Shown in pieces: positions 19,352 through 40,106 of a DNA stretch of 64,000 nt (positions are counted from its first letter, which is position 1; each line of letters starts with the position of its first letter). The stretch comes from Minisyncoccota bacterium (GTDB lineage: Bacteria > Patescibacteriota > Minisyncoccia > JAHIHE01 > JAGLIN01): the NCBI GenBank assembly GCA_041661265.1, contig JBAZUT010000001.1, forward strand, positions 129,854 to 193,853, written 5' to 3'. The notes under the pieces are model-generated. The model saw nothing but the letters and a program-made list of their open reading frames with translations. It ran no database searches and was not told where the DNA came from. A program made the position numbers and the translations under genes.

Positions 19352-20179
19352 ATGACAAATTACGAAGTCTTGTACATTCTGCCCTCAAGCCTCACAAGCA
19401 AGGAAATTGCCGATAATTTCAAGGATATAAGAGAGAATATCGAAAAATTGGGCGCTAAAATGCTTGTAACTCTCGTTGACCACCCATTCCTCGTAAAAGC
19501 GGAAGCTTCAAGAGAGGAAGAAACCGAGGAATTGAAAGGCCTCACTATAGTAAAAAAGAAACTTGCTTATCCCATCAAAAAGAATAAGATCGGTTTCTAT
19601 TGCCTTATTAATTTCAGTATCGAGGGAGCGGACGTTCATAAGATCGACAGATATCTCGCTCTCAACAACACCGTCCTTAGATACATCATCGTCCAAGCTG
19701 ATCCTATGACCGTGGATGAGCTCGCCCTGCTTCATAAACTGTTCGCAAGAAAAAGAGCCGAGCAGGAAAAAGAAGAAAAGGACAGAGAGAAAGAAGAAAG
19801 AGAAGCCAGAGAAGAAAAGAAGGAAGCAAGGATCGAAAAACCGGTGTTTAAAGAAATGAAGAAAGAAGAAGCAAAGGAAGAAGTCAAAGAAGAAGCTGCT
19901 CCGAAAGAAGAAAAGAAGGAAGAAAAAGAAGAAGTTGAGGCCAAAAAAGAGAAGGAAAAGAAAGAAGTGAAGAAAGAAAAAGAAGAAGAGAAAGCTCCCA
20001 AGAAGGAAAAGAAAGAAGTGAAGAAAGAAAAGACAGCTCCTAAGGAGGAAAAGTCCGAAGAGTCCGAAGAAGAACCTAAAGAAGAGAAAAAGAAAGACAG
20101 CGGAAAGAGGAAAAAGAAGATCAAGCTGGAAGACCTTGAAGACAAGCTTGATGAGATCCTCGAAGATACGATGATATAA
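19352..20179 (+). CDS. rpsF: 30S ribosomal protein S6 with ~150-aa Lys/Glu-rich C-terminal extension
   Basis: S6 core YEVLYILPSSL...KLAYPIKKNKIGFYCLINFSIEGADVHKIDRYLALNNTVLRYIIV, followed by KEEKKEEKEE repeats. Classic rpsF-ssb-rpsR order. Confidence 0.85.
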   Translation: MTNYEVLYILPSSLTSKEIADNFKDIRENIEKLGAKMLVTLVDHPFLVKAEASREEETEELKGLTIVKKKLAYPIKKNKIGFYCLINFSIEGADVHKIDRYLALNNTVLRYIIVQADPMTVDELALLHKLFARKRAEQEKEEKDREKEEREAREEKKEARIEKPVFKEMKKEEAKEEVKEEAAPKEEKKEEKEEVEAKKEKEKKEVKKEKEEEKAPKKEKKEVKKEKTAPKEEKSEESEEEPKEEKKKDSGKRKKKIKLEDLEDKLDEILEDTMI

Positions 20180-25547: not shown

Positions 25548-26039
25548 ATGTCTATGAGTCAATTCGATTTGTATTTCTATGTGTCCGGAATCGTTGGGAT
25601 AGTATCGATGATGGCCTTGCTTCTGAATATCGGGAAAAATAGGATCAAACCGCATACGACATTGGTCGGACTTCTTATATGCACCACTCTATCAGGAGTC
25701 GCTATCATAACGACAATGGGAGTATTTTCCTACGGCTCGAACTTTGATCCGATGATGATAGTGGTCTCAGTTTCGATCATATCCATGCTGGCCATAGCCA
25801 ATATTCAGCAGATAGCCGAAATAGCCGGCAGAAACAGTCTTGGCGTTCCGGCACCTCTCAAAGACGGGATATTTATTGCAGAAAGCAACAGCGAGAGATT
25901 CAACGGAATAAGCCGCGTCTGGCTCAGAAAACCGCCAAACGACAAGGGAACGGAAAGAGTATATGAGATACCAAAAAACACGCTAGTCCTGTCCGGACAA
26001 ACCGTCGAAGTGAAAAACGGAGAAATATTAATAATCTGA
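25548..26039 (+). CDS. hypothetical membrane protein (3 TM + soluble C-terminal domain)
   Basis: Strong RBS taaggaggaacaagtATG. Followed by a terminator. Confidence 0.6.
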   Translation: MSMSQFDLYFYVSGIVGIVSMMALLLNIGKNRIKPHTTLVGLLICTTLSGVAIITTMGVFSYGSNFDPMMIVVSVSIISMLAIANIQQIAEIAGRNSLGVPAPLKDGIFIAESNSERFNGISRVWLRKPPNDKGTERVYEIPKNTLVLSGQTVEVKNGEILII

Positions 26040-26041
26040 TC

Positions 26042-26068
26042 CTCTGCTGGAAAAAGCAGAGTTTTTTT
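26042..26068 (+). terminator. rho-independent terminator
   Basis: ctctgctggaaaaagcagag followed by ttttttt. Confidence 0.7.
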
Positions 26069-26142
26069 AAAGTTCGGATAAAGCAAGAAGGAGCTTAGCT
26101 CCTTAAATATTTTCCAATCACGTCGGTTCTGAATATAAATAT

Positions 26143-26178
26143 AAAAACAATCCCCGCTTTTATTGCGGGGTTGTTTTT
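26143..26178. terminator. bidirectional terminator downstream of the 3031-aa gene
   Basis: aaaaacaatccccgcttttattgcggggttgttttt. Confidence 0.6.
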
Positions 26179-26199
26179 ATCTGAACTGAACCTATGGAT

Positions 26200-29100
26200 C
26201 TATTGTTTCTTCGCGTAATCCTTTGAAACCCATCCTTCAATTCCCTTTGCGGTTTTGATCTTGAACCAATTTCCACTTTCGCCCAGAATGTCATACGTCT
26301 CGCCTTCTTTGGTAAATGCTAGGGTTTTTCCAAGGGTGGAATTTACAGACCTCACCCTTAACCACTTCGTGGTTATGATCAAGGTTCCTGTTGCAGAAGG
26401 CGCCGGTTCAACAGTTGCAGATGCGCCGGCAACAGAAGTGTATGAACCCAGGATCCAGCCTGTCTTTCCGGAAGGAGTGGTGATCTTATACCAGCCGTTA
26501 TTCTCTTCAAGAACGGAATAGTTTTCGTTCTTTTTTACAAAGCCCAATACTTTTCCGGTGGTACTATTCACAGAGCGGATGCGGAGAGTGGTGGCGGTGA
26601 TTGTAGCAACCCTTGTCGATTCTTCGACCGGAGTTCCTTCCGCATAAGTGCCAAGCTCGGCAACGCTTACTACTTTCACATCGGACCATTTGTAGCCGGC
26701 GGCATTGAATTCGGCCGCGGACTTCACATGCTTTCTAGTGTTGTTGTGGATGACATAAACTTTGTTATCCCCTTCAGCCCTGAGAAGCGTTACGGATCCG
26801 ACAGTCTTCACTACAGTTGCAGAAACAACCTTCACGTCAGACCATTTATATCCTCCTGCATTGAACTCTTCAAGCGTCTGGATCCAGACCTGGTTCCCGT
26901 TCTTCACAACATATACCTTCGGGGAATCGGAATATTTGAACAATGTCCCTTCAGGCTCAGTGGTCGGAGTCGAGACTGCGGGAGTTTCGGTTGTCGGAGT
27001 CTCGGTGATTGGAGTTGCAGCTTCACCTAAAGTTATCGAATCAGAAATTACAGATGACTGAACACCGGCCGAGTCTTTAAATTTGGCATATACGGTTTTC
27101 GTTCCGTTTCCGGAAGTCAATGTCCATCCCTTTGATGTCGCAAATGTTTCCCAGCTTACTCCATCGAAATTGGAAGTGTTGGAAATCGCCATATGCGTCG
27201 CGTTCGTGGCCGTGAGTGTCAATGTGACAGCCGCACCAGCCGTGCTTGCCGCACCTCCTGCAACTGAGATCGAAGCGCCAGTCACCGCCGTTATAGCCGG
27301 AGCTGACACTCCACCACCACCGGCAGGAGCAGCAGCTGCTGAAGTCGTAGCTGTAACTTCGCTTGAAGGCAAGGATTCACCTGAGGAATTCAGGGCTGTT
27401 ATCTTGTAATAATACGGGGTCGATGCGGAAAGTCCGGTATCAGTGTAGGAAGTGGTGGACCCGGATGAAACCGTGGGCTCGCTTCCAATCCTTGCGAATG
27501 TTCCGCCGGAAGAAGCGCTACGATAGATGTCATAGCTCGTCGCGCCGCTTGTCACGGTCCAGGAGAGATTGATCGAGCTTGAGCTTGCTGCAGTCGCTGA
27601 CAGTCCCGACGGAGTTGAAGGCGCTCCGGTTGTGGATGAAGTGGGCGCATAAAGCGAGAAGTGGCTTGTAGGAGCGGAGATAAGGACCGTGGACACATTG
27701 GACAACGTGTCGGAAGGAGTCAGGCCTGCAGTACTGGAATCCATTACTGTTCCGCTGGCATCTTTGTATGTGATGGTGCTTGGCAAAGTTACCCAGTTTG
27801 AATTGGTCTCATCCCAATAGGACATTTTGAGCATGTCCGCTTCCGCTTTGGTATTGATAGAGGCATCACTGCCTGACGGAGTCGCGGCCATTTCCGCTTT
27901 GCTGTAGGTCATTTCCACAGTTACGGAATCATTCAAATTTGTGATGGGATTGCCATCGGAGTCGGATGCCTTTATTTCTTTGGCCGCATTGATATAGGTT
28001 CCAGTGGCGGAATCATACTTCTTTACCGGTTTAGATGAACTTGTCTGGCGGACATTGTTCGTTTCTTTCGACTGTATATTTCCGGCGGATGTCGAGCTGC
28101 CGAGCGCGTTCGCGGGAACCGTAATCTTCACGCCCGCAGTGGTGTCTTCAAGAGTTCCTCCGCTGGCCGGTGTTATCGGTTTGGATTTAGGCGCTGAAAG
28201 AGTCACCTGAGTCGTCAAAGTGATGTCCTTTCCTGTTACGGATGCAGTCGTAATCGCGATCGGGTTTGAGGTATAAGCTGCTTCCGCATAGCCCTCTGCT
28301 ACGCCATACACTTTCCAGCTTCCGGCAGTAACATATAAAGTATAGTTACCGCTAGTATCGGCTTGCGTTCCGGCAAATCCGCCTCCTTGTTTTTCAGCTC
28401 GGACAAAAGCGTTAGCAGCCCCGGTTGCACCGATCTTAATTTGTCCCTGAATGGTTAAGGAAGTTGCGGCAAGCGTGTAAGTTCCGCTGGCCAGGTTTCC
28501 GTCGGTCACACCGGTATTTACCGTAATATTGGCCAGATCACTGACATAACCCGGTTTCATGGCCTGCACAAAATAGTCCGAAGAGGAGTTTACGACTTGC
28601 AAGGAGAAGGCTCCGCTGGCATTGGTCGAGGTCCCGAAGTGCACGCCCGTTGTCGGATCGCCGATCTCAACCCAGGCATTCTGGAGATTGTTGGTGCCAT
28701 CTGTCACGGTGCCGGACACTGTTCGCAGCGTAGGCAAGGTCACCGTGAGACCTTCATCACTATTTACAGTCAACAATTCAGATGAACTATTATAAGTCGT
28801 ATTACCATCCGTCGCGGCAATGGTCAAGGCGGATTTGGGCATGCCGGGAACATCAACTCTAACCGTATACGATCCGTCGGGAAGAGACATCGTAGCCGTC
28901 GTTTTATTCGTGATCCTCATCTTATTCCCGACTCCGGTGTTATTGAAAACCTCAATGAACGCTTCCGAAACGCTTGAGGAGAATGTGAATGTGATTGTTC
29001 TCGTGGCGCCAACCGTTATATCTTTATTGCTGATATTTCCCGCAACATTGAACGAAGCGAGCGGCAGCAATTCGCCGATATTCGGAGCAAATGCCTTGAT

Positions 29101-32100
29101 CACATATCCGTTTCCTTCCGGCGCCTTAAAGCTGTATGTTCCGTCCACTCCGCTTATTGTTTCATTAAAGGTTCCGTTTCCCATCAGTTTCACAAACACG
29201 TTAGACAGCTCTTCTCCGTTGTTATAACTTGAGCTTCCATTCGCGTCTTTGTACACCCGGCCTTGGATCGTATAGAAATTTCCGGTTCCGGTCAGGGAAG
29301 GCGAGAAATTAATATTTGAAGCGCTTGAAGTGGTGATGGTCACCGTTTGTTCTGCCAGCTGTCCGTATTGCGGCAGGAATGATCCCGCTCTCCAGGTGCC
29401 GGCGGAAACATACAATGTATAATTTCCGGAATTATCGGTCATGGCATTGGCATTTCCCGGACCATCGGTGCGATAAGCATACACTGAGGCACCCTGCACG
29501 ACGTTGGTTCCGTCGATTACCTTGCCGGAAATCGTATAATCCGGTTTAGCGAGCTTCAGAACGAAAGTCGTTAACGCCGTAGCGGGAGCGATTCCAACAG
29601 ACGCTCCATCGATGTAGAGATAATTGGTTGCATGTCCGCCTTTGGTCGTATCGCTGTTTACAACTACCGACACTTCTTTCGAAGAAGGCATGCCCGGCAC
29701 AAACGCGCCAACCACATAACTGCCATCAACTACGTTCAAAGTGAAATTACCGCTCGAATCGGCCTGAGCATGGGTTCCGAATCCGCCGGTTGGCGAATAG
29801 CCGTATACTTCGGCATTCGCGATGACTTTGTCGGATCCGTCTTTCACCACGCCTTTGATCGTCTTATCGGAAGAGGTTAAGGTAAACGCTATCGTTCCAT
29901 CATTCGCCGTTCCATTATTTTCCGTAACCGTCGCTCCGCTCACATTCACATTCACGGGCTGAGGAGGAAGATAATTCGGCGTTGGAGGCGGACCGGACAT
30001 CGGGCCTTTGGGCATTTGAGGGCCGGTTCCCACGAACCACTGTCCGTCGGAAAGATACAAAGTGGCGGATCCGGATCCTCCTCCGTTCAACGTTATTTGT
30101 TTGACCCTGAATCCGGTAGACGAACCGGCAAAAACATCCAATGGCGTATTGGCCGGACCCGTGATATTCACTGTAACCGCCGTTCCGCTTGAAGCGCTCG
30201 TGAGAGTAAAGTCATAGGTCGTAGGAGTTGATGTAACGCGCACCATTTCCGGCATAGATTTGCCAAGATAATCCGCTCCGTCCAAAGTAATGGTTTGATC
30301 GGTGAATAGCATGTAATCTCCGCTGGGCAAATTGGGGAAACTATAAGCTGCCGAACCGCCGCTGAAAGTAGCAGACGCGGCTTCCATGGGACCTGTCATT
30401 GGCGACATCAGGAAAACATTCATCGTGCCGGCGTTGGCGCTGCCCGCGGTGATCGTGCCCTGCAAAGTGTTGCTTCCGCCGGACTGAATAAAGAATGGCT
30501 GCGACGTTAATGATTCAATAACGGTTGAACCGTCGGCTGACTTAGTCTTGATGTCGACGGTGTAGCCCGAAGTGTCAAATCCTTTCGGCACGGTCGAGTT
30601 CTTTATGCTGGCTACATCGATTCTTAAGAAATCAAAGCCCGTGACATTTGTAGCCGCCGAAAGATAGATGGTTACCGTTCTGGCCGAAGTGTTAACCACT
30701 ACGCCGTCACCTGCAAGTCCTCCCTGGGCCGTTCCGGTGTCGTCGGCATTGAGAGTTCCCGAACAGGAAGCGCCTGTCGGAGCTCCGGCAGTTGCGCATT
30801 TGAATGTCGGTGCGCCTGTGCCGGGACCGTTCAGATCCGTTCTCATCGGACTGTTAACATCTTGCTTGGCATTCGTTACGTCAAAACCGCTCGGGAAAGT
30901 GAGAACGATCGATCCGCCCGCCGGAATTTGGCTGGAGATCGGAAGATCGACTCCGAAAATCGTGGTCTGCCCGGCCATCATGTTGAATGGCTTCACCATG
31001 ATCGGCGGCGCAAACCCGAATGTGCTTGAAGAGAAATTGGTCGGCACGAATCCTCCGCCATTATCAAACGCGCTTCCTCCCATGGCCATTGGCCCTAGAG
31101 CGCCTTTGGTGGTCATGCTGTTTTGGATCGTAGCGCGGGCGGAATTTCCGGTTCCTCCCATGGCCGTACCAGACAAATCTTTAGCGCCAGTGCCGAGGGC
31201 TACATATAATTCCTGCCCCGCTGCAACGCTAAGATTCAATCCTTCGATCATTACGGTGTTGGTAACAGAATCATACTTGAAGGTGGCGCTGGTCAGAGGC
31301 ACTGCGGTTCCCGCAATTGCCGGATCGAATACAGCCGTCCCGTATTTCACCGTGGCGTAATTAGACGGATTTATAACACTGGCCGCCCAATTAAGCGAAT
31401 CCGTGGCTTTTGCAGAATTCATGGGCTCGGAGAATGAAATTGCAGCGGCATAATCATCAGCGTTCATAAAAGTGACTGTCGGCACAGAGGAATCCGCCGC
31501 ACCGGTGGTGAAATTTCGCGCCACCGCAGTGGCTATGGCAAATCCGTTAATTCCGGTTACGCCCGTAGTAACATTTATCGTGTAAGTCGTATTCGGATTT
31601 AGCACTGATTTCGGTATGAAATAAGCTTGCCGGTCCAGCCCTCTGTAATCCATCGTGCCATTGATCGCCGTCGAGCCGATAGAAACATAAACCGTGGAAG
31701 TGGTGATGGTCGAAACATCCATATCCTTGCTGAAGCTCATGCTTATCGCCCCAATATTGACCGGCACGGCAGTGGCGCCATTGTCAGGATATGTTCCCAA
31801 TACCGTAGGTGCGATAATATCAGACGTGGTGCCGGTTTTGAAATCCGACATGAACATTGGGAAGGATGCCTGATCGGGAGGAGCGATGGTCATGCCATTC
31901 GCAGCCTTTGCCCCGCCCAGGACCTTCAAACGATAAGATGTGCTGGCGGCAAAAGTTCCGGAGTTATAGCCCGCCGCCAAAGTGACCGTGGAAACCATCT
32001 TGGCGTTATCAAGAGAGACGGTGCTAATCGCGCTTGAAGAAACATCCGTTTCCGTGGTGCCGCTTACAGTATATAATTTCACATTGTTCTTTAAGAGATA

Positions 32101-35100
32101 TCCTCCCCCGTCATCCGCCATCGGATCAGAGAAATTGATGACGATTTTCATGTTAAGCGGCACGTCAAACGAACCGGGAGCGGGCATTACTCCGTTCACA
32201 TGCGGAGGCACAAACGCGCCTGATCCGAAAGTTCCACCGCCTTGCAGAACTCCTCCGGAAAATGTCGCAGTCGAACCTGTCGTAAAGAAAAATACATAGC
32301 TTCCATCGGACTGATTGCCCTGGATCGCGTTGCCTGCCGTATCTGTCACATTGGGAGTGATCTTTACCGCAATATTCTTATTGTCGCCAAAAGTGTTTCC
32401 GCCCGTAAATGACCAGACGGCCAGATTTGAATCCGGAGGCAACGGCGCGGATGGCGGAGTAGTATAATATGCCCAAGCGCCTTTGGTGCTCGTGATATTG
32501 GTCAACTCACCGGTGGACATATTGACTTCATTGACCGTCATATTTCCGGCGGCCGTAATGGAAGTCTGACTCATTTCTTTGTTAAATGCTGCAAAAATCT
32601 TGAAATTAGTATCTCCGCCAGGAATTCCAGTTGATCCATCCATTGGTCCGTTCCATTTTATGCGCGGATTGGTGAGATCGCCTCCAAAGCCTCCTCCCCC
32701 GCCCTGTCCGAGCTGAAAGTTAATGCCGGAAGCGCCCGCGGGAATTCCATTCATCATACGATCAGCAAAACCTTCTTTAAAAGCAACCAGATCATAGGTG
32801 CCGGCAAATAATTTACCAGCGCCAATGGTGAAATTGCCGTCAGCGCCTGTTGCCGCCGAGAGGAATCCGGTGCCTTCGGCAAAAATATAAGCGCCTGCAA
32901 GATTGTTCGGCGTAGGAGTGGCTGAATCTTTTATGTTTCCCATGATATTGGTGCTGTTTCCTGCAGTAACAGAGGTCAATTGGAACGGATTACCGCTCAT
33001 ATCTTTCATCTGCTGGGTATTTGTTTCGTCAGTAGCTTCGAGGTAATACCTCACTATAGTATTTGCCGCTCCAACTGTTGCGGATGGAATCACATGTCTA
33101 TAAAATCCTCCTCCCAAGTGTGAGCCATTATGATTGGAATCGCTCACGTATGTCGGAGTACATCCGGATCCGGCGCAGTAATAAAGCTTGCTGGATAGAG
33201 CCGGCGTTGAAGAAGCGTTGGCAAAATTATCCATTACGCGGACAATGACATCAAGATTGGTGCTGGCCGCCGCCTGGAAAATAGGGCGGTGCATGATGTT
33301 TGGCGGCATCGTATCGGAAGCGGCTGTGACGGTCGTAAAACCGCTGGTGCCGGTTGTTTCCAATGCAGTTAAACTCCCCACGTTCGCAGAAGTTATAGTA
33401 GACATTAGTTCCGCATAGGTCTTTACGCGCCAATAATAAGCAGTATTCGGATTAAGAGGAGCTGGTTGTGTCAAGATCAGGTATTGTCCCGCCCCATAGT
33501 TTACGTTGCAGCTTGAAGCATTGCAATGACTCGCGGTTTTGGGAAAAGTGTAATCCCAAACCGTGGTACCAGTAAAATCAGAAGCGGTATTTACAGTCAG
33601 TCTATAACTATTAAATGTGGCATTGTTTGAAGGGCCGAAATTGAAGTTTGGCGGAATAGGAATATTAGTGGCATTGTTCGACGGAACAAACAAGCTCAGA
33701 CCGCTTCCAGAACTTGAATATACACCGAAGCCATTCGGCATTGTCACGACTTCGCCGCCTGTCGTGACTCTGACATCGCGACTTCCATCTGTGGCATCAG
33801 CCGTGATTGTGACTGGGAAACTTAAATTAGTAGCACCAGTGGAGCTGACCGTACCAGCTGTCGCATTTGTGTCGTTAGTACTAGTACCGCTAAGCAAGAA
33901 TTGCACTGTGCTTGAAGCTGTAAAATGAGTATTTGAACCGGTTATCGTAACAGTAAAAGGAGAAGAGCCTTTTGCTCCGCCTCCTGGAGTCACCATGTTA
34001 ATCCCGGGAATTCCTCCGCCGCCGGAAGGCGCGACGTTGATCTGGAACATTTTCTCTCCATCTACCGCGCTATCCGTAACCTTGATTCTTATTGTGTAGC
34101 TTCCCGGCGCATTGGCAACGGTACCCGTTATTTTGCCGCCATCAGCTCCGCTTGCCACGAGCGTCAAACTAAGACTTGCCAAAACGTCGATGGCGTATTG
34201 ATCAGCCGCAGCCCATGTGTATGTGCCTGTGGCACCGCCAGTCGCCTCCAAAGCTACCAAAGGAGTAGTGGTATTATAAACCGTTCCAACTGTAGTTGAA
34301 GGAATATTGGTAGTGGTAATCGTAGGCGCATTGGTTAAATTGACGGCTAAAGTGCCTACCACATTTCCACCCATATCGACAATGGCATTATTTGCCGCGG
34401 CGATCGTACTTATACCATTTCCGCCATCCGCAAAATCGCCAGAATCCAAATTTCCATTTAAAGTAACGGTCGCAAATTCCATTCCGGGATTATGAGTAAC
34501 GCTTGAAATCGTGTGTCCGCCTGTTGTTCCATTGTCGATAAAAGTAAACGAAGCCGCAACCAAACTTCCACCGCCTGATTTTTGCACCGACTTACTGAAC
34601 CTTACATTCACAGCAGCAGAGCCTGAAGCTCCGGTGGCTTTTACGATCGTCGCAGGAGCGGTGTCCGCCTTCAAATCATTGGTAGTGAAAGTGGAAGCGC
34701 CATTATTTCCGTCAGAAGTAACCACGCCAGTAGTCGCCGGAATAGCGGCAATAATACGATCATCATCGGCAATAGTGCCTGATGTTTTAATTACCACATA
34801 GAAAAATGTTTCGGTCCCATTAGCTAACGCCACCGGAGTAGCCGGCGTTAAAGTGATGCTGCTGGAAGACCAGGCCGGAGATCCTCCCAAAGTTACAACC
34901 GCATCTCCCGCACCAAACATGCCGGTATTTCCGCCTCCGGCATCATCGTATAAAGCAACGCCTGAAGTATTATTAGTGGCAATCGCCGCCAAGTCAGAAG
35001 TGCCAAACCCCGTACCGCTGAAATTCACAGTAACTGAAGTTAAAGTTTGACCGGCTTGCGACGCGGTTACGCCGACTCTTAACATAGCAGTCGCTACTGA

Positions 35101-35295
35101 ACTTGCCGGTATCGGAGAACCGGGCATCTGGGTTGGCATTCCCTGGGTTGAAAAAGTAAAAGTCGAAGCCGCCCTCGCCGCCGGCACGAGAACCAAGAAC
35201 TGCAAACCCAATGACCACACCAATGTGGCCACGAGGAGAAAAGACGCAAAAAATTTCTTCGCGCCCTTTTTTATTTCTTTCCTTGTTTTTTTCAT
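26200..35295 (-). CDS. giant secreted surface protein (3031 aa): signal peptide, many Ig-like / carboxypeptidase-regulatory-like beta-sandwich repeats, FN3 domain, duplicated GYKWSDVKVVS module, two C-terminal SH3b domains
   Basis: Signal peptide FFASFLLVATLVWSLGLQFLVLVPAARAAS. Recurrent SGNYTLYVSAGTW / DSSGNFTLNVVDGSY (CarboxypepD_reg-like). FN3 at LSATAASSSSINLSWTVTSGATSYDIYRSA...YYYKITALNSSGES. Two SH3b domains at GWILGSYTSV and GWVSKDY. AAGGAGA RBS. Confidence 0.85.
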   Translation of the reverse strand: MKKTRKEIKKGAKKFFASFLLVATLVWSLGLQFLVLVPAARAASTFTFSTQGMPTQMPGSPIPASSVATAMLRVGVTASQAGQTLTSVTVNFSGTGFGTSDLAAIATNNTSGVALYDDAGGGNTGMFGAGDAVVTLGGSPAWSSSSITLTPATPVALANGTETFFYVVIKTSGTIADDDRIIAAIPATTGVVTSDGNNGASTFTTNDLKADTAPATIVKATGASGSAAVNVRFSKSVQKSGGGSLVAASFTFIDNGTTGGHTISSVTHNPGMEFATVTLNGNLDSGDFADGGNGISTIAAANNAIVDMGGNVVGTLAVNLTNAPTITTTNIPSTTVGTVYNTTTPLVALEATGGATGTYTWAAADQYAIDVLASLSLTLVASGADGGKITGTVANAPGSYTIRIKVTDSAVDGEKMFQINVAPSGGGGIPGINMVTPGGGAKGSSPFTVTITGSNTHFTASSTVQFLLSGTSTNDTNATAGTVSSTGATNLSFPVTITADATDGSRDVRVTTGGEVVTMPNGFGVYSSSGSGLSLFVPSNNATNIPIPPNFNFGPSNNATFNSYRLTVNTASDFTGTTVWDYTFPKTASHCNASSCNVNYGAGQYLILTQPAPLNPNTAYYWRVKTYAELMSTITSANVGSLTALETTGTSGFTTVTAASDTMPPNIMHRPIFQAAASTNLDVIVRVMDNFANASSTPALSSKLYYCAGSGCTPTYVSDSNHNGSHLGGGFYRHVIPSATVGAANTIVRYYLEATDETNTQQMKDMSGNPFQLTSVTAGNSTNIMGNIKDSATPTPNNLAGAYIFAEGTGFLSAATGADGNFTIGAGKLFAGTYDLVAFKEGFADRMMNGIPAGASGINFQLGQGGGGGFGGDLTNPRIKWNGPMDGSTGIPGGDTNFKIFAAFNKEMSQTSITAAGNMTVNEVNMSTGELTNITSTKGAWAYYTTPPSAPLPPDSNLAVWSFTGGNTFGDNKNIAVKITPNVTDTAGNAIQGNQSDGSYVFFFTTGSTATFSGGVLQGGGTFGSGAFVPPHVNGVMPAPGSFDVPLNMKIVINFSDPMADDGGGYLLKNNVKLYTVSGTTETDVSSSAISTVSLDNAKMVSTVTLAAGYNSGTFAASTSYRLKVLGGAKAANGMTIAPPDQASFPMFMSDFKTGTTSDIIAPTVLGTYPDNGATAVPVNIGAISMSFSKDMDVSTITTSTVYVSIGSTAINGTMDYRGLDRQAYFIPKSVLNPNTTYTINVTTGVTGINGFAIATAVARNFTTGAADSSVPTVTFMNADDYAAAISFSEPMNSAKATDSLNWAASVINPSNYATVKYGTAVFDPAIAGTAVPLTSATFKYDSVTNTVMIEGLNLSVAAGQELYVALGTGAKDLSGTAMGGTGNSARATIQNSMTTKGALGPMAMGGSAFDNGGGFVPTNFSSSTFGFAPPIMVKPFNMMAGQTTIFGVDLPISSQIPAGGSIVLTFPSGFDVTNAKQDVNSPMRTDLNGPGTGAPTFKCATAGAPTGASCSGTLNADDTGTAQGGLAGDGVVVNTSARTVTIYLSAATNVTGFDFLRIDVASIKNSTVPKGFDTSGYTVDIKTKSADGSTVIESLTSQPFFIQSGGSNTLQGTITAGSANAGTMNVFLMSPMTGPMEAASATFSGGSAAYSFPNLPSGDYMLFTDQTITLDGADYLGKSMPEMVRVTSTPTTYDFTLTSASSGTAVTVNITGPANTPLDVFAGSSTGFRVKQITLNGGGSGSATLYLSDGQWFVGTGPQMPKGPMSGPPPTPNYLPPQPVNVNVSGATVTENNGTANDGTIAFTLTSSDKTIKGVVKDGSDKVIANAEVYGYSPTGGFGTHAQADSSGNFTLNVVDGSYVVGAFVPGMPSSKEVSVVVNSDTTKGGHATNYLYIDGASVGIAPATALTTFVLKLAKPDYTISGKVIDGTNVVQGASVYAYRTDGPGNANAMTDNSGNYTLYVSAGTWRAGSFLPQYGQLAEQTVTITTSSASNINFSPSLTGTGNFYTIQGRVYKDANGSSSYNNGEELSNVFVKLMGNGTFNETISGVDGTYSFKAPEGNGYVIKAFAPNIGELLPLASFNVAGNISNKDITVGATRTITFTFSSSVSEAFIEVFNNTGVGNKMRITNKTTATMSLPDGSYTVRVDVPGMPKSALTIAATDGNTTYNSSSELLTVNSDEGLTVTLPTLRTVSGTVTDGTNNLQNAWVEIGDPTTGVHFGTSTNASGAFSLQVVNSSSDYFVQAMKPGYVSDLANITVNTGVTDGNLASGTYTLAATSLTIQGQIKIGATGAANAFVRAEKQGGGFAGTQADTSGNYTLYVTAGSWKVYGVAEGYAEAAYTSNPIAITTASVTGKDITLTTQVTLSAPKSKPITPASGGTLEDTTAGVKITVPANALGSSTSAGNIQSKETNNVRQTSSSKPVKKYDSATGTYINAAKEIKASDSDGNPITNLNDSVTVEMTYSKAEMAATPSGSDASINTKAEADMLKMSYWDETNSNWVTLPSTITYKDASGTVMDSSTAGLTPSDTLSNVSTVLISAPTSHFSLYAPTSSTTGAPSTPSGLSATAASSSSINLSWTVTSGATSYDIYRSASSGGTFARIGSEPTVSSGSTTSYTDTGLSASTPYYYKITALNSSGESLPSSEVTATTSAAAAPAGGGGVSAPAITAVTGASISVAGGAASTAGAAVTLTLTATNATHMAISNTSNFDGVSWETFATSKGWTLTSGNGTKTVYAKFKDSAGVQSSVISDSITLGEAATPITETPTTETPAVSTPTTEPEGTLFKYSDSPKVYVVKNGNQVWIQTLEEFNAGGYKWSDVKVVSATVVKTVGSVTLLRAEGDNKVYVIHNNTRKHVKSAAEFNAAGYKWSDVKVVSVAELGTYAEGTPVEESTRVATITATTLRIRSVNSTTGKVLGFVKKNENYSVLEENNGWYKITTPSGKTGWILGSYTSVAGASATVEPAPSATGTLIITTKWLRVRSVNSTLGKTLAFTKEGETYDILGESGNWFKIKTAKGIEGWVSKDYAKKQ

Positions 35296-35788
35296 TTTTG
35301 TATTCTCCTTACAAATTAAAAAACAGCCCCTGAAAACCTCGAAGGACTGTTCGCTTGCTGATTAAATTATATGAAAAAGTTGTTGAATTCCGGTCTTTTG
35401 AAAACAAAAAATACGAGAGAACAAAAAACCTCGCATTAACATCCGATGCATTATTTATTTTTTTTATATTTTTTCTTTTAGACCCCCCTTGAAACATTTT
35501 TTGTTTTGCTTAAATAAAAAAGTATTACGGGAATTTGCCTCATAAATAACTTTCTGCTTTTCAAGCTATTCTTATTATATAAACATTTGCCATACGTGTC
35601 AAATGGATCGTAAACTGGAAATTGGATATTAGATATTGGAAATTATAATACCTCTTGCAGGAACAGACTTGCCTGCCGGAAGAAATAATCCTAAAGCTCG
35701 GCCTTAGGAAAATGCAATGTTAAATATCAGATATAAAATCTTTACATTTTCCCCTATCTATATTATATTACTTTTCAGAGGTGGAGAT

Positions 35789-35938
35789 ATGGAAACTAAC
35801 GATACGCCCTTCGACAAACCGGAAAAAATAACCGATGTATCTCAGATAAAAAATCCGCAAACATATTTTGAAACGGTATACAGCGTCTTTATGTGTCCGG
35901 GCAAAAGTTGCGCCAAAATAAAAAAATCTCAACTCTAA
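35789..35938 (+). CDS. small conserved peptide (49 aa), paralogue A
   Basis: RBS gaggtggaga then ATG. METNDTPFDKPEKITDVSQIKNPQTYFETVYSVFMCPGKSCAKIKKSQL. Terminator 35970-35999. Confidence 0.5.
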   Translation: METNDTPFDKPEKITDVSQIKNPQTYFETVYSVFMCPGKSCAKIKKSQL

Positions 35939-35969
35939 AGATGGCAAATCCAGGTTCAAACAATATATA

Positions 35970-35999
35970 AAAGCTCAAACAACGAGCTTTATTTTTTTG
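35970..35999 (+). terminator. rho-independent terminator
   Basis: aaagctcaaacaacgagcttt followed by atttttttg. Confidence 0.65.
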
Positions 36000-36165
36000 C
36001 TGGTTCAATATCTCTGACTTGAATCAATTATTCCTATGCTTTATAAGTCAGAAACTCATGGTTCAAGTTATAAACTCGTTCCCGTCGGAGAAATAAATTG
36101 CTAAGACTTAAACGCCTTTGGAATTGATGCCCTGTATCATAATATCTCTTTCCAAGGGTGGAGAT

Positions 36166-36318
36166 ATGGAAGCTGGTAATAAGCCCCAAGATACACGAAT
36201 AAAAATAGAGGTTCTATCCGAAATAAAAAATCCAAGAACGTATTTTGAAACCGTCAGAAAACTGATGATGTGTCCGGGATCAAGCTTCGCTTCCATAAAA
36301 AAATCTAAAATTTGCTAA
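36166..36318 (+). CDS. small conserved peptide (50 aa), paralogue B
   Basis: RBS aagggtggaga then ATG. MEAGNKPQDTRIKIEVLSEIKNPRTYFETVRKLMMCPGSSFASIKKSKIC shares the core IKNP.TYFETV...MCPG.S.A.IKKS with paralogue A. Confidence 0.5.
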   Translation: MEAGNKPQDTRIKIEVLSEIKNPRTYFETVRKLMMCPGSSFASIKKSKIC

Positions 36319-36372
36319 CAAGCTCAAAATGGGCTTATTTTTTTATATTATTATATCCTTTTATACCGATTT

Positions 36373-36407
36373 AAAAACCCGGCCATTTCCATGGCCGGAT
36401 CTTTTTA
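36373..36407. terminator. bidirectional terminator (serves peptide B on + and rpoC on -)
   Basis: aaaaacccggccatttccatggccggatcttttt has a perfect 8-bp stem ccggccat/atggccgg. Confidence 0.7.
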
Positions 36408-36419
36408 TCCTGAAAGATA

Positions 36420-39400
36420 TTATTCGCCTTGCGCGATCCTTCCTTTATATCCTGTCCCGGATGGGATCAGTCTTCCAATGATCACGTTTTCCTTGAGTCC
36501 CCTCAGCTTGTCTTCTTTTCCGGTTATCGCAGCGTTTATGAGAACGCGCGCTGTTTCCTGGAACGATGCCGAAGACAGGAAGCTCTCGGTGGTCAGCGAC
36601 GCTTTCGTGATCCCGAGCAGGATCTGATCATGAGTCGCTTTCTTTTTGATCTTATCGGTAATAGCTTTGTTCTTCTTGTTATCCGCTAAAACTCTGTCAT
36701 TCGCATCAAGAAGCTGGGCTTTCTCTACAACGTCTCCGATCAGAAGGTTCGTATCTCCCGGATCCTTGATGCGGACCCTTGATAGCATCTGGCGTATGAT
36801 TATCTCGATGTGCTTATCATCGATCCCCTCTCCCTGCGCCGTATATACCTGCTGAACTTCCTTGATGATATATTTTTTCACAGCTTCGATGCCCTTGAGA
36901 AGGAACAGCTCCTGAAGATCCACATGTCCCTCAACCAACTGCTGTCCAATGGTCACAAGATCTCCCTTGTTGACCAGAAGCGCAGTGTCTTTAGTGACTG
37001 TGTAGCTCCTTATATCATCGACTTTCTCCTTTGCCGACAGCGCTTCGACTCCCGGATTGAATTTTATCTTTATGGTTTTCTTTTCAAGACCTTCTTCGAT
37101 CTCATCAACTTTGCCATCAACTTCCGCGATGACTGCCTTGCCTTTCGGAAGCCTTGCTTCGAATATTTCCTCAACCCTCGGAAGTCCCTGAGTGATATCT
37201 TTTCCGGCAACACCTCCGCTGTGGAATGTCCTCATGGTAAGCTGGGTTCCGGGTTCTCCGATCGCCTGCGCGGTAACGATGCCGACGGCCTGTCCGATCT
37301 CCACCATCTTATTCCTTCCAAGATCGAATCCATAGCACATCTGACAAAGCCCTCTTCTTGTCTTGCAATCCACAACGCTTCGGACAAACACGCTCTTCAC
37401 TCCAAGCTTCTCGATCAGCTTTGCATCATCCTTGCTGATCTGCCCGCCCGCTTTGACTATGGCTTTCCCTGATTTGGGATTCTTTATATCCGCAAACGCC
37501 GTCCTTCCTGCGATCCTCATGGAAAGCCTCCTTCCAATATCTTCATGTTCTTCGGCAATGATCTCCATTGACGTCGGGTCTCCGCAATCATGTTCATGGA
37601 CGATAACATCCTGCGCAACATCGACAAGCCTTCTCGTAAGATATCCTGCGGTCGAGGTCCTGAGAGCCGTGTCGGCCATTCCTTTTCTTGTGCCGTGGGT
37701 GGAAATGAAATATTCCAGCACGTTGAATCCTTCCTTGTAACTGCTCTTTATCGGAAGTTCGATCGTCTCTCCGGACGGGTTCACAACGAGCCCCTTCATG
37801 CCGGTCATCTGGGTTATAACAGCCCAGTTGCTTCGTGCGCCGGAATTGATCATGTACGCGACAGGACTGGCTTCTCCGATAGTTCCGGGCGTCATTTTCG
37901 ATATCGTATTCTTTACGGCGGTCCAGACTTCGATCGCTTTTATCCTTCTTTCATTATTCGTGAGAAGTCCTTCTTCATATTGATTCCTGATCTCTTCGAT
38001 CTTGCCGTCAGCTTCCTTGAAAATGGCTTTCTTTTCTCCCGGAATCTTCAGGTCATCCATTCCCCAGCTGATTCCCGACCTTGTCGCATAATAGAATCCA
38101 AGTTCTTTTATCTTATCGACGAGCAACACGGTTTTTTCCGCGCCTAACAGTTCGAGAGAATCGGCAACAACCGCCTTCAGGGATGAGGAATCCATGACCT
38201 TATTGATGAACCTCAGTTCATCCGGCAAAGAGTTGTTGAATATTATCCTTCCGACGGAAGTTTCAATATATTTTCCGCTCTTTTCTTCCGCAGTCAGATA
38301 TTTCGAAGGATAGTCCTTTATCACCGAAGTCTTCAGTTTTACCTTTGAAACCAGATCGATCATACCAAGCTCATAAGACATTATGGCTTCGTCAAAATTA
38401 TTGAAAGCCTTGCCCTCTCCCTTTTTGCCGTCGATCATCTTGGTTATATAGTAGCATCCGAGAACTATGTCCTGGCTCGGCGTCACGATCGGATCTCCGG
38501 TCGCAGGCTTTAGAAGATTCCTTGCCGAAAGCATGATCTCCCTGGACTCTTTCTGCGCTTCTTCGGTGAGAGGAAGATGGACAGCCATCTGGTCTCCATC
38601 GAAGTCGGCATTGAACGCCTTGCAGACCATCGGATGGATCTGGATCGCTTTTCCCTCGATCAGCACCGGATAGAATGCCTGGATACCGAGCCTGTGCAAA
38701 GTCGGAGCGCGGTTCAAAAGTACCGCTTTATTCTGGATCACTTCTTCGAGGATATCCCACACTTCGTTTATACCCTGTTCTATCAATTTATTTGCGCTCC
38801 TCACATTATATGCAAAACCTCTTTCAATAAGTTCTTTCATTACGAACGGCTTGAAAAGTTCAAGGGCCATTTTCTTCGGAAGTCCGCACTGGTCCAGCCT
38901 CAAAGTCGGACCGATGACGATAACGGAACGCGCAGAATAGTCAACGCGTTTTCCAAGAAGGTTCTGTCTGAATCTTCCCTGTTTTCCTTTCAACATGTCC
39001 GCAAGAGACCTCAGCTGCCTCTTTTTGCCGGTTGCGGCCATAGTTGCCTGGCCTTTTCTCGCGCTGTTATCTATAAGAGCGTCAACAGCTTCCTGAAGCA
39101 TCCTTTTTTCGTTCCTGGAAATGACTTCGGGAGCCCCGAGCTCGATCAATTTCTTCAGACGATTATTTCTGTTTATCACTCTTCTATATAGGTCATTGAG
39201 ATCGGATGTCGCAAATCTTCCTCCGTCAAGCTGAACCATCGGGCGAAGGTCGGGAGGTATCACGGGAAGGACATCAAGACACATCCATTGCGGCTTGATC
39301 CCCGCTTTTATGAATCCCTGCACGACTCTCAATCTCTTCATGGTCTTTTTCCTCTGAGCTGAGGCATTTGGGATCTCATCGAGGTCTTTCTCAAGTTTTC

Positions 39401-40106
39401 TGGAAAGTTTGGGAAGATCAACCTCTTCCAATACTTTTCTGATCGCGCCGGTTCCGATATCGGCTCTGAAAACCGAAGCATATTTCAAAGACAGAGTTCT
39501 GTATTCCATTTCAGAGATCACCTTCAATTTCTTGATGCTCTTCAGATCTTCTTTCGCTTTGTCCCTCGCTTCTTTGAGTTCGTTCAATTCCGGAACGGTC
39601 AATTTTGATTTTCCCGCCTTTGCCCTGGATTTATATTCCGCTTCTATCTGATCAGATACCACCTTTCTTTCCTCTTCGTTCACATTGGTAATGAGGTAGC
39701 TTGCAAAATAGACGACTTTCTCGAGATTCTGGACAGACATATCAAGCGTAAGACCGATGCTCGAAGGAACACCCCTGAGAAACCAGATATGCGCCACCGG
39801 AACGGCAAGCTTGATGTGCCCCATTCTTTCCCTTCTTACGATCGACTTGGTCACTTCGACCCCGCATTTATCGCAGACGATCCCCTTGTATCTTATCCTT
39901 TTGTATTTTCCGCAATAGCATTCCCAGTCTTTCGTCGGACCAAAAATTTTCTCGCAGAACAGCCCGTCCTTTTCAGGCCTCTGAGTCCTGTAATTGATCG
40001 TCTCGGGTTTCGTCACTTCCCCGGTTGACCACTCCAGGATCTCCTCCGGACTTGCGAGTTTAAGCCTTACGGCATTAAAATCTTCAACCTTAGTGTTTAT
40101 TGACAT
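36420..40106 (-). CDS. rpoC: DNA-directed RNA polymerase subunit beta'
   Basis: 1228 aa. Zn-binding CGVEVT near the N-terminus. Catalytic NADFDGD. Confidence 0.97.
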   Translation of the reverse strand: MSINTKVEDFNAVRLKLASPEEILEWSTGEVTKPETINYRTQRPEKDGLFCEKIFGPTKDWECYCGKYKRIRYKGIVCDKCGVEVTKSIVRRERMGHIKLAVPVAHIWFLRGVPSSIGLTLDMSVQNLEKVVYFASYLITNVNEEERKVVSDQIEAEYKSRAKAGKSKLTVPELNELKEARDKAKEDLKSIKKLKVISEMEYRTLSLKYASVFRADIGTGAIRKVLEEVDLPKLSRKLEKDLDEIPNASAQRKKTMKRLRVVQGFIKAGIKPQWMCLDVLPVIPPDLRPMVQLDGGRFATSDLNDLYRRVINRNNRLKKLIELGAPEVISRNEKRMLQEAVDALIDNSARKGQATMAATGKKRQLRSLADMLKGKQGRFRQNLLGKRVDYSARSVIVIGPTLRLDQCGLPKKMALELFKPFVMKELIERGFAYNVRSANKLIEQGINEVWDILEEVIQNKAVLLNRAPTLHRLGIQAFYPVLIEGKAIQIHPMVCKAFNADFDGDQMAVHLPLTEEAQKESREIMLSARNLLKPATGDPIVTPSQDIVLGCYYITKMIDGKKGEGKAFNNFDEAIMSYELGMIDLVSKVKLKTSVIKDYPSKYLTAEEKSGKYIETSVGRIIFNNSLPDELRFINKVMDSSSLKAVVADSLELLGAEKTVLLVDKIKELGFYYATRSGISWGMDDLKIPGEKKAIFKEADGKIEEIRNQYEEGLLTNNERRIKAIEVWTAVKNTISKMTPGTIGEASPVAYMINSGARSNWAVITQMTGMKGLVVNPSGETIELPIKSSYKEGFNVLEYFISTHGTRKGMADTALRTSTAGYLTRRLVDVAQDVIVHEHDCGDPTSMEIIAEEHEDIGRRLSMRIAGRTAFADIKNPKSGKAIVKAGGQISKDDAKLIEKLGVKSVFVRSVVDCKTRRGLCQMCYGFDLGRNKMVEIGQAVGIVTAQAIGEPGTQLTMRTFHSGGVAGKDITQGLPRVEEIFEARLPKGKAVIAEVDGKVDEIEEGLEKKTIKIKFNPGVEALSAKEKVDDIRSYTVTKDTALLVNKGDLVTIGQQLVEGHVDLQELFLLKGIEAVKKYIIKEVQQVYTAQGEGIDDKHIEIIIRQMLSRVRIKDPGDTNLLIGDVVEKAQLLDANDRVLADNKKNKAITDKIKKKATHDQILLGITKASLTTESFLSSASFQETARVLINAAITGKEDKLRGLKENVIIGRLIPSGTGYKGRIAQGE

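Follow-up and report, generated by a model that had tools for sequence, protein, structure and literature searches.

Genes and expression signals at the locus

The window (i.e., the whole 64-kb stretch of DNA analysed here) carries two small genes in tandem on the + strand, peptide A (35789..35938; 49 aa, stop included in the coordinates; METNDTPFDKPEKITDVSQIKNPQTYFETVYSVFMCPGKSCAKIKKSQL) and peptide B (36166..36318; 50 aa, stop included in the coordinates; MEAGNKPQDTRIKIEVLSEIKNPRTYFETVRKLMMCPGSSFASIKKSKIC). Peptide A is known at NCBI as the hypothetical protein MFA6096168.1 (locus tag WC788_00905), and B has no gene call in any public source and is missing from all public protein sets. To their left, a giant surface-protein gene (26200..35295, − strand) encodes 3031 aa with a signal-like N-terminal segment and Big_5, fn3, CarboxypepD_reg and SH3_3 domains; to their right, rpoC (36420..40106, − strand) is convergent with them. 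Coordinates, translations and flanks thus agree with the earlier note, which had described tandem paralogous genes of ~50 aa from an unrecognised family between these two neighbours. The promoter and leader of the giant gene (35296..35602, − strand) include a perfect sigma-70-like TTGACA-17-TATAAT at 35602..35574, and the leader itself is conserved, measures ~270 nt and ends in a hairpin and U-run directly before the Shine-Dalgarno sequence.

The two peptides share 27 of 49 residues (BLASTP, 55% identity, E = 3e-18), and the duplication extends upstream of the reading frames. Indeed, a unit running from the −10 box to near the end of the ORF is found at 35762..35932 (+, ORF A) and again at 36139..36309 (+, ORF B), the copies (families D1 and D2) being 71–76% identical, 377 nt apart start-to-start and both containing the identical 15-mer GGTGGAGATATGGAA. 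The proposal that the upstream sequence and the Shine-Dalgarno/start context are duplicated as well is therefore borne out. A variable N-terminus and a conserved core, as described earlier, were also recovered, but the gap between ETV and MCPG is 4 residues, not 8, and the MCPG Cys, invariant throughout the family, is not their only cysteine since A has C41 and B has C50, neither of which is conserved. A degenerate DNA pattern of the invariant residues matched the window exactly twice, at A and at B (0.00 matches expected from shuffles), and a six-frame profile search found no third copy in these 64 kb. Longer in-frame versions of the ORFs (73 aa and 66 aa, with hydrophobic N-termini) were rejected: they start upstream of the conserved promoter and overlap it, and they are not conserved, being absent from the related loci L001, L005 and L007.

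As judged from the sequence, each of the two genes has its own set of expression signals, namely a promoter element, a Shine-Dalgarno sequence of the GAGGTG type and an intrinsic terminator. For A, the promoter scan listed the promoter-like pair TTTACA-17-TATATT (35741..35769, +), and a TTTACA −35 with a TAtAtT-type −10, ending 16–21 nt before the start codon, recurs at the orthologous position in L001, L005, L006, L007 and L014. A GAGGTG read from the sequence (35778..35783, +) stands 5 nt before the ATG, and GAGGTG or GGAGGT is found 5–6 nt before the start in L001, L005 and L006. Downstream, a terminator-like hairpin with a T-run (AAAGCTC..GAGCTTT; 35970..35998, hairpin 35970-35990, +), which is also terminator-like on the − strand, is the sole stable element in the RNA fold, and an AAGCTC...GAGCTT stem is located 3′ of the orthologues in L001, L006 and L007 as well.

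For B, a putative weaker promoter, TTTGGA-17-TAATAT (36117..36145, +), was read from the sequence. Its −10 box TAATAT (36140-36145) lies at the conserved distance from the start codon, and its −35 box TTTGGA, which matches TTGACA at three of six positions, is below the listing of the promoter scan, so that of the two genes only A has a good −35/−10 pair. The own ribosome-binding site and terminator previously ascribed to each gene can thus be retained, with a Shine-Dalgarno sequence before both and a hairpin with T-run after both, although that of B is only Shine-Dalgarno-like (AGGGTG; 36155..36160, +; 5 nt before the ATG, within the duplicated GGTGGAGATATGGAA block). The terminator-like hairpin of B (AAGCTC..GGGCTT plus T-run; 36320..36344, hairpin 36320-36336, +) is conserved in L001. 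Overall, the hairpin scan gave 5 terminator-like hairpins in the region for 0.9 expected. A GC-rich hairpin between B and the rpoC 3′ end (CCGGCCATTTCCATGGCCGG; 36379..36398), also conserved in L001, is likely the terminator of the convergent rpoC transcript. Expression is more certain for A than for B, which has no good −35 box and was never annotated.

Coding evidence and extent of the family

Short units with promoter and terminator are typical of small RNAs too, and a duplicated small RNA or repeat element in which the ORFs are incidental would fit the several perfect runs of nucleotide identity between A and B, as well as the fact that gene finders never called B. This reading is largely refuted by the codon analysis, and we consider its probability almost negligible. 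Indeed, over the core codons 17–44 of 7 sequences, dN/dS is 0.13–0.5 with dS mostly above 1, which means that the amino acids were kept despite saturation of the synonymous sites, and the variable columns are in excess at third positions (24, versus 16 and 16). As an example, the core of B and that of P0002, the family member of L001/L002, are identical in amino acids, all four nucleotide differences being synonymous, and A and B differ by 8 synonymous single-base changes within conserved codons. The Shine-Dalgarno sequence is conserved 5–6 nt before a conserved start, Rfam gave nothing near threshold for the window region and the related loci, and RNA folding was no better than that of shuffles (z = 0.13 and −1.83) apart from the terminator. 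The earlier note had made the peptide reading depend on conservation of the frames in related genomes, where the frame, and not just the nucleotide sequence, is conserved. By these codon patterns, A and B are real protein-coding genes under selection.

The family is tiny, with 8 distinct sequences against billions of proteins searched, and each of them comes from this one locus. When 1.84e9 cluster representatives were scanned exhaustively with HMMER, 4 members were returned besides A, and an indexed search of 5.8e9 clusters added P0002, with P0127 falling in the cluster of A. No match was found in metagenome contigs for two degenerate DNA patterns or in viral contigs for a relaxed one; since the stricter pattern recovers every known member locally, these contig collections are simply without the clade. 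A match from the scan of genome contigs was rejected as a chance C-terminal ‘EIKNPQTYF*’ of an unrelated 172-aa Bacteroidales lipoprotein. Pfam and NCBIfam gave no matches to either peptide at E<=10, bacteriocin and precursor families included. A sequence profile of 7 members found nothing meaningful in the PDB (best matches: designed TIM barrels, E 0.17-0.2), and the ‘TVYSFCMCPGG’ of PDB 3nlc is a chance match (E 1.8). A literature search for small or giant proteins in Patescibacteria gave nothing relevant. Judging from these searches, the family is undescribed and confined to one narrow clade of Paceibacteria. The organism itself is a CPR bacterium, its source being given at NCBI as ‘Candidatus Paceibacterota’.

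Island structure and recombination

In all loci, the peptide gene is located between the 5′ end of the giant gene, from which it diverges, and the 3′ end of rpoC, with which it converges. Because sister lineages have ftsK directly after rpoC, with no family member there, the comparison of gene orders indicates that an island made up of the giant gene and the peptide gene was inserted between rpoC and ftsK. This block of ~11 kb contains the peptide gene, the giant surface-protein gene and a 163-aa membrane ORF. Co-occurrence with the giant gene, which the earlier note had raised for checking, is found in the syntenic loci, and the two are absent together in the sister lineages; this co-distribution comes from a few related genomes and could be mere synteny. 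Note that rpoC carries one in-frame stop in each of L009 and L013, at different positions, and that the apparent ‘split rpoC’ of L010 is a contig-edge artefact. In the same L010, a 62-aa convergent gene after rpoC was discarded as a family member and is an ABC-F gene fragment.

Two copies were found only in this genome, a single gene being present in every other haplotype with visible flanks. The A-type allele stands alone in L014, and B-type genes are also single in other haplotypes. When compared to the same-species haplotype L001, a segment at 35510..36213, which includes the promoter region of A, A itself, the spacer, the promoter of B and codons 1–16 of B, is unalignable. On the right, this segment ends within gene B at a recombination breakpoint (codon 16/17): identity to L001 is 94–97% to the right of it, versus 52% for B codons 1–16 and 49–55% for the upstream region. 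Further left, it is 86% in the giant-gene leader and 75% in the giant CDS. As read from these alignments, the locus recombines, one crossover falling within the gene, where the conserved core begins, and the ‘variable N-terminus, conserved core’ pattern arises from this breakpoint.

Diversifying selection on the N-terminus was rejected, as its synonymous sites are equally saturated (B compared to L001: pS 0.84, pN 0.47) and the adjoining non-coding DNA is unalignable as well. The N-terminal variability is mainly that of a recombination mosaic, together with relaxed constraint on a predicted disordered tail. We infer that the tandem pair represents two diverged alleles joined in one genome and not a functional two-peptide system.

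An island inserted between rpoC and ftsK, with at least 3 haplotypes (two of which co-occur in one assembly) and a breakpoint inside the gene, would also suit a small protein of conflict or defence type, such as an orphan antitoxin-like protein or an anti-phage modulator, whose island would be mobile and exchanged rapidly and whose link to the giant gene would be only physical. A strain-variable hotspot and an invariant Cys might also be expected of a conflict factor or of a secreted one. The conflict or defence reading appears unlikely to us when the rest of the locus is considered: no family match was obtained in PADLOC for any of 7 members, the PHROGs matches of these members were limited to single-member ones (E>=0.12), no toxin ORF is adjacent, each gene is monocistronic with its own terminator, and no integrase or transposase was found at the locus in the window.

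Predicted fold, putative role and known systems

The absence of a signal peptide, as claimed earlier, holds for the family: neither signal peptide nor transmembrane segment nor hydrophobic stretch was found in 7 sequences, which have GRAVY values from −0.7 to 0.0 (negative in 6 of 7) and a core charge of +3 to +6. These values and the missing hydrophobic stretch led us to reject a type I toxin or membrane small protein. Two AlphaFold runs, one for A and one for B, gave the same topology (beta11-14 / alpha23-35 / beta42-45) with pLDDT of 67.2 and 74.5, respectively, and low confidence for residues 1–10; the alignment was shallow because only eight closely spaced sequences exist, and the model is moderately confident. 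Foldseek found no match in the PDB for either model, whether to bacteriocins, saposins, tautomerases or any other fold, and no similarity to known binding or regulatory folds was seen. The invariant residues, among them Cys-Pro-Gly and Ser, would suit the helix caps and hydrophobic face of a folded mini-domain in this model. Tautomerases of the 4-OT type have a catalytic N-terminal Pro1 and a beta-alpha-beta fold that forms oligomers; this assignment was rejected since residue 2 in the family is E, S or V, never P, and Foldseek matched no tautomerase.

Considering these observations together, we propose that A and B act in the cytoplasm as free-standing small proteins, which are probably oligomeric binders with a link to the giant-gene island, a reading that we hold with about even confidence. 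Residues ~11–45 would fold into an amphipathic beta-alpha-beta unit with the invariant [ND]-P and C-P-G as caps. This unit would be too small for stability alone and so would probably act as a homo- or hetero-oligomer in the cytoplasm, with the first ~10 residues as a disordered, weakly constrained tail. The basic core and C-terminus would bind a partner, either protein or nucleic acid. The most likely sphere of action would be the giant surface-protein island, its expression or its handling, and this is the weakest step of the proposal. A and B may be small regulatory proteins, as suggested in the earlier note, and its other suggestions (toxin, signalling peptide or modified precursor) found no support, no modification, export or immunity genes being present in the 64-kb window. 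This survey of the window relied on Pfam annotation of ORFs of at least 150 aa, which showed housekeeping, glycosylation and surface genes only.

The size of the peptides, the sharp division into a variable and a conserved half and the invariant Cys-Pro-Gly and Ser positions might also recall the precursor of a ribosomally synthesised, modified peptide (RiPP), in which the core would be either the conserved C-terminus, its invariant Cys being modified (e.g., thioether or heterocycle), or the variable N-terminus with a C-terminal follower. This remains very improbable. No radical-SAM, YcaO, LanB/C/M, cyclodehydratase, peptidase-exporter or similar gene was found in the 64-kb window, on the syntenic short contigs the peptide gene adjoins its two neighbours with no other gene in between, no precursor family of NCBIfam or Pfam matched, and the invariant residues are accounted for by the putative mini-domain. 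Because the variable half varies at synonymous sites too, its variability points to recombination and not to core diversification.

A more specific version of the proposed island-linked role, which we regard as an improbable one, is that the small protein is a dedicated partner of the giant surface protein (a regulator or a cytoplasmic handling/assembly factor), encoded divergently from it and, in episymbiotic CPR bacteria, travelling and recombining with it as a two-gene ‘surface-variation cassette’. The N-terminal tail would then be the allele-specific determinant, and the conserved core would double as a homology patch for swaps of giant alleles between strains. CPR bacteria (Patescibacteria) have tiny genomes and depend on contact with a host cell, for which their giant surface proteins are prime candidates; to our knowledge, next to nothing is known of their control or variation. 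The locus shows a bona fide small-protein family partly missed by gene callers, the swapping of alleles of a giant surface-protein island among strains that co-occur (one of the crossovers lying within the small gene), and a conserved leader ahead of the giant gene. Should the small protein prove to be functionally tied to the giant one, surface variation in an uncultivated lineage would become accessible to experiment; otherwise, the family would be one more lineage-specific hypothetical small protein of the kind common in CPR genomes.

Among known systems, leaderless two-peptide enterocins come with export and immunity genes. Like A and B, enterocins L50A/L50B and 7A/7B are cationic peptides of ~45-50 residues without a leader, encoded by adjacent paralogous genes (PMC6131525), and together with the strain-variable hotspot and the adjoining surface-protein gene this layout would fit a leaderless, possibly two-peptide, bacteriocin-like pair, exported against competitors or the host cell in an antimicrobial or signalling role. 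Most leaderless bacteriocins adopt a compact, amphipathic, all-helical saposin-like fold, with a single-helix, membrane-active structure as the alternative, and the enterocins are amphipathic or hydrophobic, helical and membrane-acting (PMC6131525), whereas A and B are hydrophilic and predicted to be beta-alpha-beta. In addition, A and B have no sequence similarity to the enterocins, no match to a bacteriocin family of Pfam or NCBIfam and no ABC exporter or immunity gene within 64 kb, and the pair occurs in this genome only. The small size, positive charge and lack of a leader, signal or hydrophobic N-terminal segment, which A and B share with leaderless bacteriocins, are non-specific features, and a bacteriocin-like function is doubtful.

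RiPP precursors usually have a conserved leader and a variable core, bottromycin being of the follower type. These precursors, including follower-type ones, resemble A and B in being short ORFs that combine one variable and one conserved half with an invariant Cys, but the usual polarity is reversed in A and B, as it is in the variable leader and conserved core that the earlier note had considered, and no tailoring or export genes are nearby.

Like A and B, ribbon-helix-helix (RHH) proteins (Arc/CopG/MetJ) have ~45-50 aa and an N-terminal strand followed by a helix and then by a G-x-S turn; their genes often diverge from the gene under their control, as A and B do from the giant gene. In contrast, the C-terminal segment of A and B is too short for helix B and is a predicted strand. 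An RHH assignment was thus rejected: hhalign gave the family profile a probability of 0.2% against an alignment of Arc/Mnt/CopG/ParD/RelB/NikR/CcdA, and no RHH family of Pfam matched.

Sda, MciZ, FbpB and SR1P of B. subtilis are free-standing small regulatory proteins of ~40-60 aa that bind a larger partner. A and B resemble them in size, in having their own promoter, Shine-Dalgarno sequence and terminator, in their cytoplasmic, hydrophilic and basic character, and in their narrow distribution among lineages. They differ from them in lacking homology, in a predicted fold without a match, and in a locus that forms a recombination mosaic and is linked to a surface-protein island. What is new here is the family, which has no relatives by sequence or predicted fold; genes for free-standing, lineage-restricted small proteins are themselves already well known.

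The two genes and their narrow family

On re-reading the window, the coordinates and translations of both ORFs agreed with those of the earlier note (A, 35789..35938, +, 49 aa; B, 36166..36318, +, 50 aa), and their paralogy was confirmed, with 27 of 49 residues common to both and a BLASTP E-value of 3e-18 for the pair. The duplicated DNA unit covers 35762-35932 and 36139-36309 (377 nt start-to-start, 71–76% identity), and the identical block GGTGGAGATATGGAA within both copies corresponds to the duplicated Shine-Dalgarno/start context described previously. The gap between ETV and MCPG is 4 residues, not the 8 reported; as for the single conserved Cys, the MCPG Cys (C36) is indeed invariant in the family, but each peptide carries a second, non-conserved one. 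A degenerate pattern built from the invariant residues had A and B as its only matches in the 64-kb window (0.00 expected), and a six-frame profile search of the window found no third copy.

The reading frame, and not merely the nucleotide sequence, is conserved in related genomes, the opposite of the nucleotide-only conservation that, by the earlier note, would have spoken against peptides. Indeed, 8 conserved core codons differ between A and B by synonymous third-position changes, and the 4 core differences between B and P0002, its same-species orthologue on loci L001/L002, are all synonymous (4/4). Over core codons 17-44 of seven sequences, dN/dS was 0.13–0.5 with dS mostly > 1 (Nei-Gojobori), and variable columns numbered 16/16/24 at codon positions 1/2/3. 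A duplicated non-coding RNA in place of protein genes is extremely improbable given the synonymous changes in conserved codons, the lack of matches to Rfam families and an mRNA folding no better than in shuffled controls, terminators aside (z = 0.13 and -1.83).

Each ORF is followed by its own terminator-like hairpin and T-run, as had been claimed (35970-35990 after A and 36320-36336 after B; 5 such sites were detected in the scanned region versus 0.9 expected), and the promoter of B has a -10 box and a weak -35. The signals are kept at the orthologous position in the related loci L001, L005, L006, L007 and L014, namely a promoter-like pair TTTACA-17-TAtAtT with its -10 end 16–21 nt before the start codon, a Shine-Dalgarno GAGGTG/GGAGGT 5–6 nt 5′ of the start, and a hairpin AAGCTC...GAGCTT with T-run (except in L005, whose sequence stops short of the terminator). 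These conserved signals place the L006 gene start at a GTG at 1677 and rule out longer 73-aa and 66-aa ORF versions in the window as artefacts of AT-rich promoter DNA. On present sequence evidence, we consider that A and B are protein-coding genes, under selection and independently signalled.

The family, which the earlier note did not recognise, is still undescribed and has no relatives detectable by sequence or predicted fold. Its distinct sequences number eight: 4 besides A came from an exhaustive HMMER scan of 1.84 billion cluster representatives, word-indexed searches of 5.8 billion clusters added P0002, P0127 is a member of A’s own cluster, and B is absent from all public gene calls. The public entry for A reads ‘hypothetical protein WC788_00905, Candidatus Paceibacterota bacterium’. 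Degenerate DNA patterns, which matched every known member in a local control, gave 0 matches in metagenome and viral contig collections, and the sole match in the genome contig collection was a chance C-terminal likeness in a Bacteroidales lipoprotein. The invariant residues (A numbering) are S18, I20, K21, P23, Y26, V30, C36, P37 and G38. As judged from these searches, the family is extremely narrow and limited to one clade. Note that small hypothetical proteins confined to one lineage are frequent in CPR genomes.

In line with the earlier reading, no signal peptide was found, nor any transmembrane segment; the peptides are hydrophilic (GRAVY -0.7 to 0.0), with an acidic or neutral N-terminal part and a basic core (+3 to +6). 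AlphaFold2, using the 7-sequence alignment, predicted one topology for both (pLDDT 67.2 for A and 74.5 for B), with residues 1-10 disordered, a strand at 11-14, an amphipathic helix at 23-35 and a second strand at 42-45. In these models, [ND]22-P23 would form the helix N-cap and C36-P37-G38 the C-cap and turn, and Y26 and V30 would lie on the hydrophobic face of the helix. No structural neighbours were found in PDB for either model or in BFVD for the A model. Since an isolated ~35-residue beta-alpha-beta unit is unlikely to be stable alone, the predicted fold suggests that the peptides probably oligomerise. A resemblance to ribbon-helix-helix proteins (strand, helix, G-x-S turn) failed a profile-profile test (probability 0.2%), and a 4-OT-like beta-alpha-beta reading was rejected for want of Pro1 and of a fold match.

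The giant-gene island and its control region

The peptide gene is tied, physically and phyletically, to the giant surface-protein island. The co-occurrence that the earlier note proposed to check was found as the same arrangement in all loci whose flanks extend far enough (the window, L001/L002, L005, L006, L007 and L014), with the 5′ end of the giant gene (26200..35295, -) divergent on one side and the 3′ end of rpoC (36420..40106, -) convergent on the other. Family member and giant gene are both absent from the loci of the nearest sister lineages, retrieved with the RpoC C-terminus as anchor: rpoC is followed directly by ftsK in L011 and L012 (RpoC identity 71–73%), by an ABC-F gene with an ftsK-like gene behind it in L010 (75%), by a transposase-like gene in L013 (57%), and by nothing in the 328 nt available 3′ of it in L009 (83%). 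Because sister lineages are without it and ftsK lies just past the giant gene in the window, an island of ~11 kb, made up of the peptide gene(s), the giant gene and a 163-aa membrane ORF, was probably inserted between rpoC and ftsK in this clade; it looks both inserted and exchangeable. A conflict or defence-type small protein carried on a mobile island is an unlikely identity for the peptides.

The island spans ~25548-36318 in the window, and the direct rpoC-ftsK junction is at 5417-5559 in L011 and 821-1339 in L012. Between same-species haplotypes, the giant CDS is 75% identical versus 97% for rpoC at the nucleotide level. At the island’s other edge, convergent with the giant gene 3′ end, a 163-aa ORF (25548-26039, +) has ~3 hydrophobic segments and no Pfam match. 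The other window genes encode glycosyltransferases, sugar-nucleotide enzymes, YchF, Mrr, phosphatases, recA, a RodZ-like gene, rpoB, a PAS protein, a TPR protein and other large surface-type proteins. The earlier note proposed to look for modification or export genes in related genomes; in the 64-kb window itself, neither enzymes for RiPP tailoring nor exporters of peptides are encoded, and immunity genes are likewise missing. A RiPP precursor is very unlikely.

The giant gene has a perfect sigma-70-like promoter, TTGACA-17-TATAAT (35602..35574, - strand), and a 5′ leader of ~270 nt conserved in four loci (window 35296-35602, -; L001 2040-2310; L005 850-1135; L006 1262-1545). The leader ends in a conserved hairpin and U-run immediately before the Shine-Dalgarno, and a second hairpin, GCGAG..CTCGT, becomes CCAAG..CTTGG in L005/L006, a compensatory change by eye. 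The leader has no Rfam match and is a candidate attenuator or riboswitch-like leader; a 62-aa minus-strand ORF inside it (35309..35497) is without Shine-Dalgarno and its end is not conserved. Between the divergent promoters, 35610-35715 has no aligned counterpart in L001, L005, L006 or L014; it contains direct repeats TGGAAATT..GATATTAGATATT..GGAAATTA and two hairpins, GCAGG..CCTGC and TCCTAAAGC..GCCTTAGGA (T-run, - strand), and could be an operator, an insulator or a small inserted element.

Elsewhere, rpoC is a single uninterrupted 1228-aa ORF in the window, and is split by gene callers in L009 and L013 because of one in-frame stop in a highly conserved region, TAG for Ser in EYFI-S-THG (L009, 4468-4470) and TAA for Glu in GETI-E-LP (L013, 9920-9922), which could reflect assembly error, pseudogenisation or recoding. 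Many ~400-420-aa ‘RpoC’ entries beginning MADTAL may be contig-edge calls (checked for L010 only). A Peptidase_S74 domain (intramolecular chaperone of endosialidase, tail-spike type) occurs in a 1533-aa protein at 51167-55768 (-), after which come surface proteins of the fn3 and WxL-interacting-protein-like kinds; this suggests that large proteins of surface or phage-like type form a second cluster here. A 275-aa ORF at 19352-20179 (+), unusually long for bS6, matches ribosomal protein S6 at residues 68-114 only. The 1623-aa multi-domain glycosyltransferase at 161-5032 (-), with two GT2 regions and GT4/GT1 domains, adjoins sugar-nucleotide genes and a GtrA-like gene, and this region may be glycosylation machinery for surface structures.

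Recombination within the small gene

Two copies occur in this genome only. L001/L002 are conspecific with the window genome (100% RpoC identity across the 94 aa that can be compared), and L002 and the window’s own contig stem from one ENA assembly. They have a single gene, which shares 96% identity with B in its core and terminator; in its first 16 codons the figure is 52%, and in its upstream DNA 49–55%, no better than random. Since synonymous and non-synonymous sites are both saturated in these codons (pS 0.84, pN 0.47), the N-terminal variability points to recombination and not to point-mutational diversification. Compared with the window, L001/L002 are 94–97% identical on the right of the breakpoint, from the B core to rpoC; on its left, identity is 86% in the giant-gene leader and 75% in the giant CDS. 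This change in identity places the crossover point, from an exchange of alleles or islands, within the small gene, where its conserved core begins. A third haplotype, L014, carries an A-type gene 88% identical from promoter through terminator, with 4 synonymous and 6 non-synonymous changes, the latter all at positions where the family varies. In the flanks, identity is down to ~73% or the DNA cannot be aligned, and the 250 nt downstream show no B copy.

The locus, as its sequence alignments indicate, is mosaic, and A-type and B-type genes are most simply read as diverged alleles of one locus. A recombination event in the window genome would have left both alleles in tandem, A nearer the giant gene and B nearer rpoC; the identical SD/start block and the relatively low A versus B divergence in the N-terminal part suggest some later gene conversion between them. 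The tandem pair is best explained by two alleles brought side by side at a recombination hotspot, not by a two-component system. The one-copy chimeric haplotype and the two-copy haplotype exist within one metagenome assembly (L002 and L004, both ENA ERZ27249449), and strain heterogeneity apparently breaks the assembly at the peptide locus, since the variant locus was assembled only as a 761-bp fragment.

Proposed role and known systems

We propose that the product would be a cytoplasmic, oligomeric small binding protein, presumably neither exported nor modified. Its target would lie within the linked island, in the expression or handling of the giant protein, which is the weakest step; the co-distribution argues for such an internal target, as does the divergent layout, in which both genes share a control region of ~500 nt. 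A role of the small gene as cognate partner of the giant surface-protein cassette, or as the cassette’s recombination anchor, has a low probability; if true, it would be the more interesting possibility. It is similarly doubtful that the products are leaderless bacteriocin-like peptides. Their closest known layout is the two-peptide type (tandem, cationic and leaderless), but the defining genomic features of that type, linked export/immunity genes (none in the 64-kb window) and a conserved pair, are missing here, and the predicted models lack the amphipathic all-alpha saposin-like fold that marks most leaderless bacteriocins (PMC6131525). In working principle, the nearest analogues of A and B are Sda, MciZ and FbpB, small regulatory proteins that stand alone and act by binding a larger partner; this is by analogy and not by membership.
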